In this document: positions 29,320-38,707 of the stretch, piece after piece
Numbering within the stretch: the first letter of the stretch is position 1
Layout: each line of letters starts with the position of its first letter
From: an uncultured Pseudobdellovibrionaceae bacterium
Lineage (GTDB): Bacteria; Bdellovibrionota; FAC87; UBA2466
DNA length: 64,000 bases
NCBI GenBank assembly: GCA_964616705.1
Contig: CAZTRP010000014.1
Coordinates: forward strand, 8,770 to 72,769
Direction of reading: 5' to 3'
Program-made: the position numbers and the translations under genes
Notes under the pieces: generated by a model
What the model was told of the DNA's origin: nothing
Seen by the model: only the letters and a program-made list of their open reading frames with translations
The model's database searches: none

Positions 29320-30276
29320 ATGAGAGCATTTATTACTGGTATTACCGGGCAGGATGGCTCGTACCTTGCGGAATTTCTTCTTTCCAAGGGTTACGAGGTC
29401 TATGGGGTGGTGCGTCGCTCCTCTACCGAAAACTACGAACGCATCCAACACATTCGCGATCGGGTTACCCTGCTACAGGCGGACTTGCTCGACCAGGTCT
29501 CCCTTACCCAAGCCCTGCAAGTGGCTAAGCCAACGGAAGTTTACAATCTTGCGGCCCAGTCTTTTGTGCCAACGTCGTGGCAACAGCCCGTATTGACGGC
29601 CGAGTTTACGGCGGTAGGCGTCTCGAGGGTTTTGGAGGCAGTGCGGGCCGTTTGTCCCAAAGCGCGTTTCTATCAGGCCTCAAGTTCCGAAATGTTCGGA
29701 AAAGTGCGTGAGATTCCGCAAACCGAAAACACACCGTTTTATCCTCGAAGTCCGTATGGGGTGGCCAAGGCTTATGGACATCACATCACCGTAAACTACA
29801 GGGAAAGCTACGGATTGTTTGCCGTCTCTGGGATTTTGTTCAATCACGAATCTCCACGGCGTGGGCTCGAATTCGTTACCCGGAAAATCACTGACGGGGT
29901 GGCGCGAATCAAGCTTGGTCTGTCGAACCATCTGAGTCTGGGAAATTTGGATGCGGCGCGAGATTGGGGATTTGCCGGAGACTATGTTCGAGCGATGTGG
30001 CTGATGCTGCAACAGTCGGAACCTGAAGACTTCGTTGTCGCCACCGGGGTAGCCCATACAGTTAGAGAGTTTGCAGAAATCGCTTTCGGATCCGTCGGTT
30101 TGAAATACCAGGACTATGTGAAGCTGGATCCGGCATTCCTTCGCCCCGCCGAAGTAGATCAGCTCTTGGGGCAACCCGCCAAGGCCGAGCGGATTTTGGG
30201 ATGGAAGCCCGAAGTGACCTTTCAGCAAATGATTGAGGAAATGGTCCGCGCGGACCTTGCACGGTACTCTAAATAG
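29320..30276 (+). CDS. gmd: GDP-mannose 4,6-dehydratase.
   Basis: '[17 protein letters not shown]', 'YGVVRRSS' and the 'YGVAKAY' catalytic Tyr motif match Gmd. Confidence 0.95.
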
Positions 30277-30278
30277 AA

Positions 30279-31805
30279 TCAAGAAGTCTGGAACGCGAAA
30301 TAGATTTTACGCACGGCGATTTCTGAAAGCCTTGGCAGCTTTGTGGCACCAAGAGAATCATGCACGTAGTCCGCGTTACGCATTCCATTCAGAACACAGC
30401 TCACCCCGGGCGTGTGAATCAAAACTCCAAGGGCTTTGCGGGATAGAGTCTCTTTCTTCCATTCTTCCGGGAGGTAGGGATCGAGCTTTTGTGCAACTTG
30501 AATGCTAGTTTTCTGCGAGCGGGCCCCGGCTTCGTTTCTAAACACGATCAACAGGCGATCAAGGATGGGCAAGTATTTCTTATGCCAATCGTGCCAAGGG
30601 CCAGGCTCGAGCTGAGTGGTAAGCTGGTCGCAGAGGTAGCGCACGTGTTCCCGGATTTGCTCTTCAATCTGTCCCCAACGATCTGCGCCGAGGCCCAAGC
30701 TGTGTACCTCAGATAAATCCTTGGCCCATCGGAACAGATCCGCGGCAACGCCTTCGTCTGCGCCGATTTTCAAAAAAGGAGCGATCGTCTGTGAGAACTC
30801 CGATTCTAGCTTGTCGACTTGCGCTAAAAGTTCTTTCCATGAAAGGGGCTCGGGAATCGTGGCGAAGTCCGCAAGGCGTACTAGCTGCTGCTGGGTAAAC
30901 GCGTTCAATGGGCGGTTCACCAAGACTGCCAAGTGGTATTTCGAGGCGAATTCTAGGGCAGTCATCGACCCGTCCGCCCCGGTATTTTTCTCGTGCCCAG
31001 GGCCTGATTCGTACAAGTTCAATGGAAGTTGAATGAGGCGAAAATGGTGGCTGTCGGGCGCTCCCCCACGTTTAACCGCCAAATCTTCGGCTATTTTCAA
31101 GAACTGGCTTACGGAAGTTGCATCGGCCCTACTTGCGGGTGCTCCAAGAGAGTTTGAAGAAACACCGTAGGCCTGGATCTTTCCCAGTTGGACTTGCGCT
31201 TCTAGAAACTCAAAAGCTTTGGCTACGCGCGCGTAGAATTGCTCTCGTAGTTTGGGTAATAAAACCGACGAGCCCCGTCGGGCAGCATCCATAAGGTAGT
31301 ATTCGGGGTTGTGCAGAAGATAAAAGTCCAAACACTGCATTTGGAGTCTTTCTAGGGACTTCTCAAGTTGAATGCTAAGGAAGTCAGGGTGAAGGCAATG
31401 CCAGCAATCGTCCTGATACTTGACCATGTCGGGAAACGGATTGCCCTCTGCTTCTCGTGTTCGGGCTAATTCGAGCGCTTGCCCCTGCACGTACCCAACC
31501 TTCGAAACTAAAATAACCTGGTTTCTATCCAGGATCCCAACTTGGATCATTTCGCTAAGCGCTTTACCCACTAAGCGCTCACTTCCGCCATCGGCGTAGT
31601 TGGTTGAGGTATCGATGAGGTTACAGCCTTCAATTAGGGCAGTTTTTAGAGCTTCAGAATAGACCGGTGATATTTCGTTAACTCGGTAACCCCCGAAGCC
31701 GACTCTGGAGCAATGGAGTCCAAGGCCTTCCAGCCACCCACCCAATTCCTTGCGGGAATTGAAGTACTCTGCCGTGCCGTCTACCGTTGCATGTCCCTCA
31801 ATCAA
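30279..31805 (-). CDS. Aldo/keto reductase family protein with a long C-terminal extension.
   Basis: The N-terminal part ('RVGFGGY...IDTSTNYADGGSERLVGKAL...') is AKR-like. The protein is 508 aa, roughly 180 aa longer than typical AKRs. Confidence 0.65.
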   Translation of the reverse strand: MIEGHATVDGTAEYFNSRKELGGWLEGLGLHCSRVGFGGYRVNEISPVYSEALKTALIEGCNLIDTSTNYADGGSERLVGKALSEMIQVGILDRNQVILVSKVGYVQGQALELARTREAEGNPFPDMVKYQDDCWHCLHPDFLSIQLEKSLERLQMQCLDFYLLHNPEYYLMDAARRGSSVLLPKLREQFYARVAKAFEFLEAQVQLGKIQAYGVSSNSLGAPASRADATSVSQFLKIAEDLAVKRGGAPDSHHFRLIQLPLNLYESGPGHEKNTGADGSMTALEFASKYHLAVLVNRPLNAFTQQQLVRLADFATIPEPLSWKELLAQVDKLESEFSQTIAPFLKIGADEGVAADLFRWAKDLSEVHSLGLGADRWGQIEEQIREHVRYLCDQLTTQLEPGPWHDWHKKYLPILDRLLIVFRNEAGARSQKTSIQVAQKLDPYLPEEWKKETLSRKALGVLIHTPGVSCVLNGMRNADYVHDSLGATKLPRLSEIAVRKIYFAFQTS

Positions 31806-36648: not shown

Positions 36649-36661
36649 TATGATGTAAACC

Positions 36662-38707
36662 ATGTCAAAGCGGAAATTTCGGCCTGTCCCGTGGTTTGTC
36701 GCAAGTATTGTCCTTCTCGGCGCTTCGATCTATGTGTGGCAGTTCCACAAAGATGGCGCCAATTCCGAACCCGATCAATTCCTGCATTTTGCACTTGGCA
36801 GGCAGATGGCCGAGCAAGGGTTTATTGAAAAAATTCCGCAGGCAACAGATTTGAGTTGGAGCGAGCACTACGACAACGAATATTTCTTGTTTACTGGATT
36901 GACGGCGCTGGCGTGGAAGGTGGGAGGCGAGAATGCTGCCCGAGCTCTAGTGCCGATTCTTGTTACCTTGCTCGCGCTGCTGGTCTTTAAGTTTTGTCGT
37001 AGGTACCTGCATTGGGGTTGGGCGCTTGGATTGTCCCTCTACTTGCTCTTGCACCCATACACTGTCTCTCGGTTTCTGGCGCTTCGTCCTTCGCTGTTGG
37101 CGGAATCGCTCTTTCTTGGGCTGGTCTTTGGTTTGGTGGAATCGAACGTTTGGGTCGTTGCGGCTACTGCTTTTTTGTTTCCGCTAAGTTACCACGCGAT
37201 TTATTTTCCGGCGCTTGCGCTTTTGTTCGCAGCGTTACTTGGCCGAATCTACTCTCCCAAGTGGCTCAAGACTTCGGCAATCGGGGGCGCAGCACTCATT
37301 GCGGGCATTTGTTTGCACCCTGCCTTTCCTCACTCTTTGGAAATGGTAACGAACGTTTTCACGGCGACTCTGAGGCCCGTCCAAATTCCACTGAGTGAGA
37401 GCTCCATGGAAGTGCAGGGATGGCTAAAGGAACAGCTATTTGGCAGAGTGCCATTTTTTCTTGCGATACTAACCATTGCTCTTTGGCAATTGTCCATGGA
37501 ATGGGCGCCTACGCGCCCCAAGAAACGCGCTACCAAGGTATTCTGGGAACCAGAATTTCTATTCCTATTTGGACTGACTGCTGTGTTTGTTGCGCTTTTA
37601 CTGCTTTCTTATCGTGCAGTGGAATATGCCGGTCCGTTAGGTTTGGTTTTCGCTGCGCTTGTTATTGGACGTACGGCACGAGGAGGAAAAGAACGGGCGG
37701 CGTTTTTTGTCATGGGGTTTGTTTTCCTTTTGCCGGAATTTCCAAGTGTATGGATTAGGCCATTTCCTCCAAGCGTTCCAATGTCGGAACTAAGACAGGC
37801 GATACTGGCGTTGCCTCCGGAAGCCAATGGCAAGAAAGTTTTCAACTGCGATTGGTATACGGGCGGCCCGATTCTGTATTGGAATCCAAATGTGCAATTT
37901 TCCGACCTCGGTGATCCGGGCGCGATTGAAAAGTCCCATCCCGGATTTACCTCATTAAAAATGGCGCTGCGCCTTGCCGAGGTTCCCTATTTGCTTGGAC
38001 CCGTGCGGTATGCATTTAAGTCGGACTACGTACTGTGTCAGCATAGCCCAATGGTCCAATCTATGGAGGGAAGCCCACATTTCCGTCGTCTGTTTCCCAT
38101 TCCGTCGAAGCGTTTTGAAGAAATTCCGGCGTCATCGTATTTCGTTTACGAAGTAGCCAAGAGCCTCAACGATTCATTTGTGACAGCTTTTGAGGTATCC
38201 AATCGCTCGGTCGCTTCTACCTGGTCTAAGCTTGAAAGCAAGTCCGCCTTGCCGCCCGAACAGCGATCCCCTTTTGTTGGCCTCGGCAGTCAAACTTCAG
38301 CTGATCGTACTCCTACGTCTTCCGGGAATAATTGCGTTGAGCTTAGGCCCACTTCCGAAGCTTGGAACGGGGCGATTGGGGCTAAATACTTGGGTTTGGG
38401 AGGGGGACCCGAAGTCGAAGTATCCCTAAATGGACAAAAGTTTTTTGACCGCAAAAAGTGGTCTGTGCGTAAAGACCTCGATGTTCTAGTTCCTCTGCCA
38501 AAAGCGCTATCACAAAAAGACAACTTAAAGATAAAAGTGTGTTCGCAAAAGGACCGGCTCCGGTCAGGCATCGCCGTTTCTCTTTGGACTCCGGAGAGGC
38601 TGCGGAGTATTTGCGATTGGAAAAATGACCCGCTCGAATCTTCCATGAAGACTTACTTGGATAGGCCGCTGAGAACTTGTCTTGGGCCTGTGGCTACTTT
38701 GCACTGA
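36662..38707 (+). CDS. Large polytopic membrane protein with a roughly 300-aa C-terminal extracytoplasmic domain. It may be a GT-C-type transferase.
   Basis: It is 681 aa with about 11 N-terminal TM helices followed by a soluble domain. It lies immediately downstream of the Dpm1/GtrB-like GT2, matching the Gtr/Arn-type gene arrangement. Confidence 0.45.
   Translation: MSKRKFRPVPWFVASIVLLGASIYVWQFHKDGANSEPDQFLHFALGRQMAEQGFIEKIPQATDLSWSEHYDNEYFLFTGLTALAWKVGGENAARALVPILVTLLALLVFKFCRRYLHWGWALGLSLYLLLHPYTVSRFLALRPSLLAESLFLGLVFGLVESNVWVVAATAFLFPLSYHAIYFPALALLFAALLGRIYSPKWLKTSAIGGAALIAGICLHPAFPHSLEMVTNVFTATLRPVQIPLSESSMEVQGWLKEQLFGRVPFFLAILTIALWQLSMEWAPTRPKKRATKVFWEPEFLFLFGLTAVFVALLLLSYRAVEYAGPLGLVFAALVIGRTARGGKERAAFFVMGFVFLLPEFPSVWIRPFPPSVPMSELRQAILALPPEANGKKVFNCDWYTGGPILYWNPNVQFSDLGDPGAIEKSHPGFTSLKMALRLAEVPYLLGPVRYAFKSDYVLCQHSPMVQSMEGSPHFRRLFPIPSKRFEEIPASSYFVYEVAKSLNDSFVTAFEVSNRSVASTWSKLESKSALPPEQRSPFVGLGSQTSADRTPTSSGNNCVELRPTSEAWNGAIGAKYLGLGGGPEVEVSLNGQKFFDRKKWSVRKDLDVLVPLPKALSQKDNLKIKVCSQKDRLRSGIAVSLWTPERLRSICDWKNDPLESSMKTYLDRPLRTCLGPVATLH

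Follow-up and report, generated by a model that had tools for sequence, protein, structure and literature searches.

A candidate lipid-carrier-dependent glycosylation module with two unannotated GT-C-fold protein families in an uncultured Pseudobdellovibrionaceae bacterium

Main finding

A 64,000-nucleotide stretch of DNA from an uncultured Pseudobdellovibrionaceae bacterium (contig CAZTRP010000014.1, positions 8,770 to 72,769; this whole stretch is called "the window" here, and coordinates are counted from its first letter unless a locus is named) carries a set of six genes that we consider rather likely to encode a lipid-carrier-dependent glycosylation system acting at the outer face of the inner membrane. 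At the heart of it seem to be GT2b, a soluble 256-aa family 2 glycosyltransferase (GT2) that is a probable polyprenyl-phosphate-sugar synthase of the DPM1/AglJ/ArnC-like kind, and TM461, a 461-aa polytopic protein predicted to be a periplasmic-face glycosyltransferase of GT-C fold and the conserved partner of GT2b, accompanied by TM681, a 681-aa protein whose model suggests a lineage-variable second transferase of the same fold. The original prediction, made by a model from the letters and a list of open reading frames (ORFs), had described six genes, among them a Dpm1/GtrB/ArnC-like GT2 and two large membrane proteins of GT-C-like topology, and had read them as parts of an envelope glycosylation system; the ORF listing and profile searches agree with its coordinates and domains for all six, and its interpretation is, in its core, supported.

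In the mechanism proposed, GT2b would, as homology and neighbourhood suggest, load polyprenyl (undecaprenyl) phosphate with the sugar moiety of a nucleotide sugar on the cytoplasmic side of the membrane, a flippase encoded elsewhere would turn the lipid-linked sugar over, and TM461 (the fold of which is predicted) would hand the sugar to an extracytoplasmic acceptor. TM681, present in part of the lineage, might act likewise at a different site or on a different acceptor; the carbohydrate-binding-like beta-sandwich at its C-terminus may be what holds the acceptor. GT2a, a cytoplasmic GT2, may build the acceptor glycan, and MT, a class I S-adenosylmethionine (SAM)-dependent methyltransferase, may modify either that glycan or the donor.

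The candidate donor synthase

GT2b (35878-36648, plus strand; Pfam GT2 E 3.9e-20) shows no transmembrane (TM) segment, and its best solved relative is the dolichyl-phosphate-mannose synthase (DPMS) of Pyrococcus (5mlz), found at E 8e-13 with the single sequence and at 2.6e-17 with a 29-sequence profile, the alignment spanning residues 4-176 inclusive of the GSR motif; next after DPMS, the profile matches TarS and ArnC (the latter at E ~3e-06), and the top NCBIfam matches are AglJ, haloarchaeal dolichyl-phosphate hexose transferase and PpgS. The metal motif reads H93-P-D95-x-Q97 as compared with D-A-D-L-Q in DPMS, with D95 and Q97 being invariant. More than 8000 homologues were found. GT2b is the most conserved gene of the module, the protein being 75-89% identical across genomes in which TM461 is 40-64% and TM681 41-59% identical, a degree of conservation that would fit an enzyme with invariant small substrates.

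Gene neighbourhoods in other genomes

The strongest functional evidence is gene neighbourhood. A pattern-based genome scan, suited to close relatives only, gave three loci, and a metagenome scan gave six; in what follows, L001, L002 and L020 are related genomes, and L003-L009, L013-L019, L021 and L022 are the further loci examined. The nearest genomes are uncultured Pseudobdellovibrionaceae and Bdellovibrionaceae metagenome-assembled genomes (MAGs), and the comparison across relatives proposed along with the original prediction revealed that order and orientation are kept in L001, L002 and L020, so that the genes are to be regarded as real rather than as chance ORFs. The first two share the order gatB, gmd, AKR (an aldo-keto-reductase-like gene), bolA, grx, TM461, GT2a, MT, DsbD_N, GT2b, TM681, with proteins 41-88% identical to those of the window. 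L020, a 187-kb contig of a related genome (46-85% identity), keeps gatCAB, gmd, AKR, bolA, grx, TM461, GT2a, DsbD_N and GT2b and, further on, genes for a CN-hydrolase, agmatine deiminase, an AlkZ-related protein and a GT22 protein (54% identity, same relative position), and is without MT and TM681 (L020 10326-12708 versus window 33833-38707). As L020 is syntenic and yet lacks these two, both are accessory; MT and TM681 go together, in that the window, L001 and L002 have both genes and L020 has neither. The conserved ancient core appears to be GT2b plus the GT-C enzyme TM461, with TM681 as a lineage-specific addition directly after GT2b.

The pairing extends well beyond the close relatives. In L004/L005, a GT2b homologue of 75% identity runs into the start of a TM461 homologue, and three of the four loci chosen via GT2b alone (L018, L021 and L022, not L019) also show a pairing of GT2b homologue and GT-C protein: in L018, a TM461-family gene comes immediately 3' of the GT2b homologue (profile E 1e-129); on a Sinorhizobium megaplasmid (L022), it follows a 552-aa PMT_2 protein scoring above the Pfam cut-off, in a polysaccharide locus that also encodes a formyltransferase, Wzy_C, dehydratases and a GT4; and on a Novosphingobium plasmid (L021) it sits between a methyltransferase and a VTT/DedA gene, after which comes a polytopic protein weakly matching the TM461 profile. 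L019 contains rmlCDA, and no GT-C gene lies within 5 kb of its GT2b homologue. Altogether, GT2b homologues adjoin GT-C genes in L004, L006, L014, L018, L021 and L022, and these GT-C proteins are of different kinds. The soluble, Dpm1/GtrB/ArnC-like character that had been ascribed to GT2b is therefore supported, and the opposite possibility, of an ordinary polysaccharide GT2, is not what the DPMS match at E 2.6e-17 and the GT-C neighbours in three of four loci indicate.

In two of these loci (L006 4305-5885, minus strand, 526 aa, and L014 4254-5795, minus strand, 513 aa), the GT2b domain (38% identical) is fused to a SAM methyltransferase, both fusion genes being divergent from the neighbouring TM461 homologue, and the methyltransferase half of the L006 protein is 29% identical to the MT of the window (E 2e-11). 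Such a fusion of donor synthase and methyltransferase hints at methylation, either of the lipid-linked sugar or of its product. The fused GT2 of L006 was also considered as a GT2a homologue, which was rejected given its 38% identity to GT2b versus a 24% local match.

Two side observations pertain to L021. The VTT/DedA gene (L021 7905-8513, plus strand) lies directly 3' of the GT2b homologue and could represent the missing flippase type, DedA proteins having been proposed as polyprenyl-phosphate flippases. Near the same homologue, L021 10071-12152 encodes a large polytopic spermidine-synthase-like/methyltransferase-fold protein; two such proteins adjoin a TM681 homologue in L017 (4193-7999), and BLAST finds no similarity among these proteins.

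TM461

For TM461 (32487-33872, plus strand), the homologues number more than 339 and come from Myxococcota, Polyangia, Oligoflexia and other groups; the plasmid collection contains none. The window protein has no Pfam match, PMT_2 included, and one weak NCBIfam match, to a Leptospira family of putative glycosyltransferases; a check with the PMT_2 profile, also proposed with the original prediction, was thus negative for this protein and gave weak matches for 11 of 56 family members (best E 4.6e-7), on which grounds the family appears to be a distant relative of the PMT_2 clan and not a member. The family profile matched all PDB chains at chance level only, and hhalign against the window's own GT22 protein gave 0.2% probability. 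Since sequence searches of the PDB with both membrane protein families gave chance matches only, their fold assignment rests on predicted structures. For TM461, the AlphaFold model built from the 56-sequence alignment has a pLDDT (predicted local distance difference test) of 91.9, and its polytopic core is superposable on solved GT-C enzymes, as is the core predicted for TM681. The GT-C-like topology suspected for both proteins is hence corroborated by the predicted folds, and neither turned out to belong to transporters or unrelated families.

D64 is invariant in the 56 sequences and is the sole invariant acidic residue of loop 34-79; other invariant residues include W65, N76-K77-x-P79-G80 and G361-P-R-Y364. 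The loop is placed outside because of the positively charged N-terminus and hydropathy, and D64, in this first outer loop, is likely the catalytic residue. Both TM461 and TM681 have positively charged N-termini and acidic first loops with an invariant or near-invariant Asp; hhalign finds a weak relationship between the two families (E 8.3e-5, probability 60.6%), which have the motifs NPxF/NPYFP and PRY/PRAxEY in common. It had been stated that no catalytic GT-C motif was recognisable in the two proteins, which no longer holds, as candidates can now be named: D64 for TM461 and E36-P37-D38 / P37-D38-H42 for TM681. The large unannotated proteins near TM461 homologues in L013-L015 were examined as TM681 relatives and do not match the family profile.

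TM681

TM681 (36662-38707, plus strand) is predicted to comprise ~13 TM helices (DSSP helix count) and a C-terminal domain of ~315 aa, laid out as a periplasmic alpha/beta domain followed by a cysteine-rich beta-sandwich. A word-indexed search found nine homologues, and a hidden Markov model (HMM) scan of 1.84 billion representatives with the TM681 family gave 1,193 at E<=1e-3, of which 225 reach E<=1e-30. The protein has no Pfam match, the 42 family members scanned gave single scattered weak matches only, and the family profiles (A1, A3) found nothing beyond chance among PDB chains at E<=10. In many relatives of 460-530 aa, the alignment is confined to query residues 10-480, which makes the beta-sandwich an optional module. 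Two sets of diverse homologues, of 78 and of 42 sequences, both keep P37, D38 and H42 at 90% or more, within a consensus DPDRYYH straight after TM1, and the window protein reads E36-P37-D38 at this family consensus DPDxYYH; further near-invariant positions among the 78 homologues are R137, R142-P143, Y177-H178, P220-F222-P223, E250, R318-E321-Y322, W398, D415 and four cysteines of the C-terminal domain. The positively charged N-terminus and the cysteine-rich C-terminal domain would make the protein N-in and C-out, and so put the Asp motif outside; D38 is likely the catalytic residue.

Whether TM681 might instead be a protein glycosyltransferase (PMT, DPY19 or oligosaccharyltransferase (OST)-like), using the GT2b product on periplasmic or surface proteins with the DsbD_N protein as a substrate or helper, deserves consideration, as the OST and PMT structural matches suggest protein glycosylation. 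The top Foldseek ranks are STT3B, STT3A (twice) and AglB (E 3.7e-7 to 3.7e-6), but TM-scores are only ~0.45, and no STT3 or solved-OST sequence match was found for the family (Pfam with 42 members, PDB profiles), nor does any TM681-family member match Pfam STT3 or PMT. The ~13 TM helices and loop 235-258, the only long low-confidence loop of the model (pLDDT <50), in which the near-invariant E250 sits, recall the OST layout, which they fit without being specific to OSTs. An NCDW stretch ~30 residues after the last TM helix recalls in its position the OST WWDYG (an equivalence judged by sequence order only); it was rejected as a counterpart, since its Asp is variable across the family and only W398 is conserved. 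A type IV pilin gene lies 3' of the TM681 homologue in L008 (7383-7895), yet this is a single case, and the DsbD_N protein, which has no conserved Ser/Thr-rich stretch, occurs together with GT2b in L020, where TM681 is missing. TM681 is thus, as far as its sequence tells, not a canonical oligosaccharyltransferase, and we consider protein glycosylation by it to be very improbable, the least likely of the explanations weighed here.

Genes of the TM681 family have other company elsewhere. A Memo-like gene (AmmeMemoRadiSam B family) is located directly upstream of, and overlaps, TM681-family genes in L003 (2622-3437) and in the P0138 locus, both Bdellovibrionaceae-type, and a TM681-family gene comes directly after an ABC-2 permease in the metagenomic loci L007 (2192-3446), L008 (4377-5144) and L009 (2796-4494), with an ATPase gene upstream in L007 and L009.

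The acceptor

With GT2b, TM461 and TM681 read as a lipid-carrier-dependent system, the acceptor is most probably an envelope glycan, that is, a polysaccharide or the glycan part of lipopolysaccharide (LPS). A glycan is favoured because L006 and L022 are polysaccharide loci (Wzx, Wzy_C, rml genes, other glycosyltransferases), because ABC-2 exporters adjoin TM681 homologues (L007-L009), because an exopolysaccharide (EPS)-type cluster is present at 46-55 kb of the window, and because TM681 has a sandwich resembling a carbohydrate-binding module (CBM), as do GT136, EmbC and AftD (PMC11127046).

A more specific proposal would have the module modify lipid A or the LPS core in the manner of ArnC/ArnT or FlmF1/FlmK, with GT2b making undecaprenyl-phosphate-mannose and TM461 and/or TM681 mannosylating the lipid A backbone, the outcome being a phosphate-free, neutral lipid A as in Bdellovibrio bacteriovorus. 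The closest genomes being Pseudobdellovibrionaceae and Bdellovibrionaceae MAGs speaks for it, as does the lipid A of Bdellovibrio itself, whose two phosphates are replaced by alpha-mannoses (Schwudke 2003, cited in PMC2233673); in Francisella, the DPM1-like synthase FlmF1 and the GT-C protein FlmK are required for the mannose of lipid A (PMC2233673), and two GT-C enzymes would suit two attachment positions. On the other hand, neither a PAP2-type lipid A phosphatase nor any other lipid A gene is found in the 64-kb window, and LpxE/LpxF phosphatases and Arn sugar-modifying genes are absent both from it and from the L001, L002 and L020 loci; the GT2b-TM461 module is widespread (Myxococcota, Polyangia, others) and not confined to predators; TM681 is missing from the syntenic relative L020; and ArnT is not the best structural match of either TM461 or TM681. 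The literature searched contained nothing specific on genes for Bdellovibrio lipid A mannosylation. All in all, we regard this proposal as improbable, albeit less so than protein glycosylation.

The boldest version, for which we would likewise give little credence, is that TM681 founds a CAZy-level GT-C family (at least 1,193 sequence clusters, with no Pfam, NCBIfam or PDB sequence relative) combining OST-like architecture with a polyprenyl-monophosphate-sugar donor, and that TM681 and TM461, both fed by GT2b, either put mannose in the place of phosphate on the lipid A of Bdellovibrio-like predators or form a new bacterial protein-glycosylation system.

Coherence of the module

By their layout, the six genes fall into three predicted transcription units: bolA-grx4-TM461; MT-GT2a on the minus strand; and DsbD_N-GT2b-TM681, the last with spacings of 12 nt and then 13 nt. 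The 4-nt overlap of MT (34738-35331) and GT2a (33833-34741) noted earlier is borne out; GT2a converges on TM461 with an overlap of 40 nt, and MT is divergent from the DsbD_N operon. The genes had been called an "island", a term too strong for the unity that they show: there is no compositional shift, and L020 is syntenic without TM681 and MT. GC content is flat at ~0.50 across the window, and otherwise the window carries housekeeping genes (rho, lspA, tig, clpPX, lon, metK, RNase J, citrate synthase, topoisomerase VI, uvrD, gatAB, agmatine deiminase, recR), so this is not a compositional island; horizontal acquisition of an island was rejected on the same two observations.

Several points weigh against a lipid-carrier-dependent system. 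Its support is made up of predicted structures, remote homology and gene neighbourhood, and chance may in part account for the closeness of three transcription units among housekeeping genes. No member of the flippase families GtrA, SMR and MATE was noted among the ~50 window ORFs scanned against Pfam. GT2b scores 24-49 bits versus curated equivalog cut-offs of 325-529 (AglJ, PpgS, ArnC, PgfS), which is so far below them that GT2b is not an orthologue of any named enzyme, and in its DxD motif a His stands at the position of the first Asp (HPD). Of seven distant loci with TM461 homologues, three (L013, L015, L016) have no neighbouring GT2b gene, and TM681-family genes outside the close relatives stand beside GT2b in none of seven further places, so that the TM681-GT2b link rests on one lineage; the confidence of the TM681 model, moreover, is moderate (pLDDT 74).

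Some of this might be taken to mean that there is no single system at all, but independent envelope genes that are chance neighbours in a conserved housekeeping block, TM681 possibly using another donor, e.g., an undecaprenyl-diphosphate-linked glycan, and GT2a, MT, DsbD_N, gmd, GT87 and GT22 belonging to unrelated pathways. The three units on two strands, the flat GC and housekeeping flanks, the absence of TM681 and MT from L020 while the rest of the synteny stays, the other neighbours of TM681-family genes elsewhere, and the separation of GT87 and GT22 from the module by topoisomerase VI, uvrD, gatCAB and agmatine-pathway genes would all agree with it. However, the GT2b-GT-C adjacency recurs in unrelated genomes with four kinds of GT-C protein, GT2b-methyltransferase fusions exist, and the 13-nt GT2b-TM681 gap belongs to an operon conserved in three genomes. 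We therefore hold mere coincidence to be unlikely and keep to the lipid-carrier-dependent system as the better explanation of GT2b and its GT-C neighbours.

Accessory genes and other features of the window

The DsbD_N-like protein (ORF 35224-35865, plus strand; Pfam DsbD_N E 1e-10) had been described as secreted, which its predicted N-terminus supports: translation from the ATG at 35401, probably the real start rather than 35224 judging by the sequence, gives 154 aa with a signal-peptide-like N-terminus. Its YQACDDKVCFPP cysteine pair is conserved in L001 and L002, and its gene, the first of the DsbD_N-GT2b-TM681 operon, stays upstream of GT2b in L020, which has no TM681. The protein was rejected as an acceptor or dedicated partner of TM681, as it stays with GT2b in the TM681-less genome and has neither a conserved Ser/Thr-rich region nor a lipobox.

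GT2a (minus strand; Pfam Glycos_transf_2 E 7.3e-22) is of the WcaA/PglI/EpsE type, with NCBIfam matches to PglI, TuaG, EpsE and WcaA that are all under the cut-off and best PDB matches to GalT1 and SpsA, and is conserved in L001, L002 and L020. MT (minus strand) matches Pfam Methyltransf_11 and Methyltransf_23 at E ~1e-10.

Upstream of TM461, the gmd and bolA-glutaredoxin flanks reported before are both present: gmd (29320-30276, plus strand) encodes a GDP-mannose 4,6-dehydratase scoring 437.8 bits against the cut-off of 415 of the NCBIfam equivalog TIGR01472, and bolA (31835-32152, plus strand) and grx4, a monothiol glutaredoxin gene ending at 32486 on the same strand, have Pfam and NCBIfam matches. 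The gene map first drawn is correct for these genes but omits AKR, a 508-aa ORF between gmd and bolA (30279-31805, minus strand; Pfam Aldo_ket_red E 1.2e-21); the match concerns the N-terminal part of this protein and covers only half of the profile, and the gene is found beside gmd in L001, L002 and L020. The grx4 stop codon TAA abuts the TM461 ATG with zero spacing (32484-32489), and bolA and grx4 are probably co-transcribed with TM461; the bolA-grx4-TM461 order, kept in L001, L002 and L020, suggests a redox/Fe-S pair co-transcribed with an envelope enzyme. Between 29000 and 40000, one sigma-70-like promoter match was found versus 7.1 +/- 2.4 expected from shuffles; promoters of this organism may not follow the E. 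coli consensus.

Two further GT-C proteins at separate loci had been drawn into the picture, a GT87-like protein (20655-21767, minus strand; Pfam GT87 E 7e-13) and a GT22/Alg9-like enzyme (ORF 42474-43982, minus strand; Pfam Glyco_transf_22 E 6.2e-15). Both exist; their being parts of one system with the module is unsupported, housekeeping genes lying in between, GT87 being 9-12 kb away across topoisomerase VI, uvrD and gatCAB and GT22 ~4 kb away across agmatine-pathway genes. Nothing ties gmd, GT87 or GT22 to the system, and gmd has no demonstrated link to the module. A DNA methylase ORF (N6_N4_Mtase, 43897-44667, minus strand) and the 5' end of the long GT22 ORF share 86 nt, and the true GT22 start is probably further downstream, as at the 43877 originally given. 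The GT87 start is overlapped by 16 nt by the stop end of a gene (21752-23686, minus strand) for a protein of 644 aa in which HEAT repeats at the N-terminus are combined with a cyclophilin-type prolyl isomerase at the C-terminus. Topoisomerase VI is mainly archaeal and eukaryotic and is known from only a minority of bacteria; here, its B subunit (585 aa: Topo-VIb transducer, GHKL ATPase) and A subunit (380 aa: TP6A_N, Toprim) are encoded adjacently at 17766-20662 on the plus strand. The EPS/capsule-type cluster (46228-55843) encodes an SLBB (Wza-like) protein, a GT2, a GT4, a 733-aa Wzc-like P-loop protein, a UDP-glucose/GDP-mannose dehydrogenase, an asparagine-synthase-like protein and a 498-aa protein without a Pfam match.

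Comparison with known systems

The kind of mechanism proposed is already known, namely as the Gtr-like three-component scheme and as the ArnC/ArnT logic. Gtr systems consist of the flippase GtrA, the undecaprenyl-phosphate-glucose synthase GtrB and a serotype-specific GT-C enzyme, Gtr*. Gtr-type three-component systems, as well as their pentofuranose analogue with a GT-C enzyme of family GT136, carry out the periplasmic glycosylation of O antigens (PMC11127046). As in these, a synthase would charge polyprenyl phosphate here and a GT-C enzyme would use the product outside the cytoplasm, and TM681 appears to carry a carbohydrate-binding beta-sandwich like the GT136-type enzymes do. Unlike in the Gtr systems, GT2b is without a transmembrane anchor, the locus has no linked flippase gene, the GT-C enzymes are two in number and neither falls into a curated family, a methyltransferase is associated with the module (and fused to the synthase in other genomes), and the window locus is neither phage-borne nor inside an O-antigen locus.

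With ArnC/ArnT and the Francisella FlmF1/FlmF2/FlmK proteins (PMC2233673), the module shares the pairing of a DPM1-like synthase with a 13-TM GT-C enzyme. Unlike in ArnC/ArnT, the window proteins match no ArnT or PMT_2 profile, and neither Arn sugar-modifying genes nor a lipid A phosphatase are nearby. The YYSNKAPG of TM461 and the DPDxYYH of TM681 resemble the ArnT/PMT_2 motifs "YFEKP" and "DExRY".

With STT3, AglB and PglB, the layout predicted for TM681 is compatible without being specific to them, as it has ~13 TM helices, then an alpha/beta and a beta domain on the periplasmic side, and a flexible outer loop with a conserved Glu, whereas WWDYG is lacking, sequence similarity is not detectable, and TM-scores are ~0.45. 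Furthermore, oligosaccharyltransferases use diphosphate-linked oligosaccharides and need no DPM1-like partner. In the mycobacterial systems of PpgS (Rv3631) with Rv3779 and of Ppm1 with PimE and other GT-C mannosyltransferases, the synthase of the polyprenyl-phosphate-sugar is soluble or peripheral and supplies large GT-C enzymes, by which envelope glycans are decorated, which is the arrangement envisaged here. PpgS is among the best NCBIfam matches of GT2b, yet with 46 bits versus a cut-off of 370, and phylum and envelope are different ones. The eukaryotic GT22 enzymes ALG12 and ALG9, which depend on dolichyl-phosphate-mannose, likewise consist of a compact GT-C_A core that lacks any large outer domain, and use a lipid-linked monosaccharide donor, but have no sequence-level relation to the TM461 family.

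What is new compared with all of these is that two hitherto unannotated families are assigned, by predicted structure, the GT-C fold, TM681 being apparently the large one with an OST-like architecture, and that a soluble DPM1-like synthase of very high conservation is repeatedly found paired with GT-C proteins, with methyltransferase fusions and with no linked flippase. GT-C periplasmic glycosylation shapes LPS, capsules, cell walls and surface proteins, and thereby antibiotic and phage sensitivity as well as immune recognition, and the locus gives two sizeable families, unannotated in current libraries, a predicted fold, candidate catalytic residues and a probable donor-making partner. It also offers a concrete candidate gene set for the uncharged, mannosylated lipid A of predatory Bdellovibrio-like bacteria. 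In practice, what is gained is better annotation and a short knock-out list.

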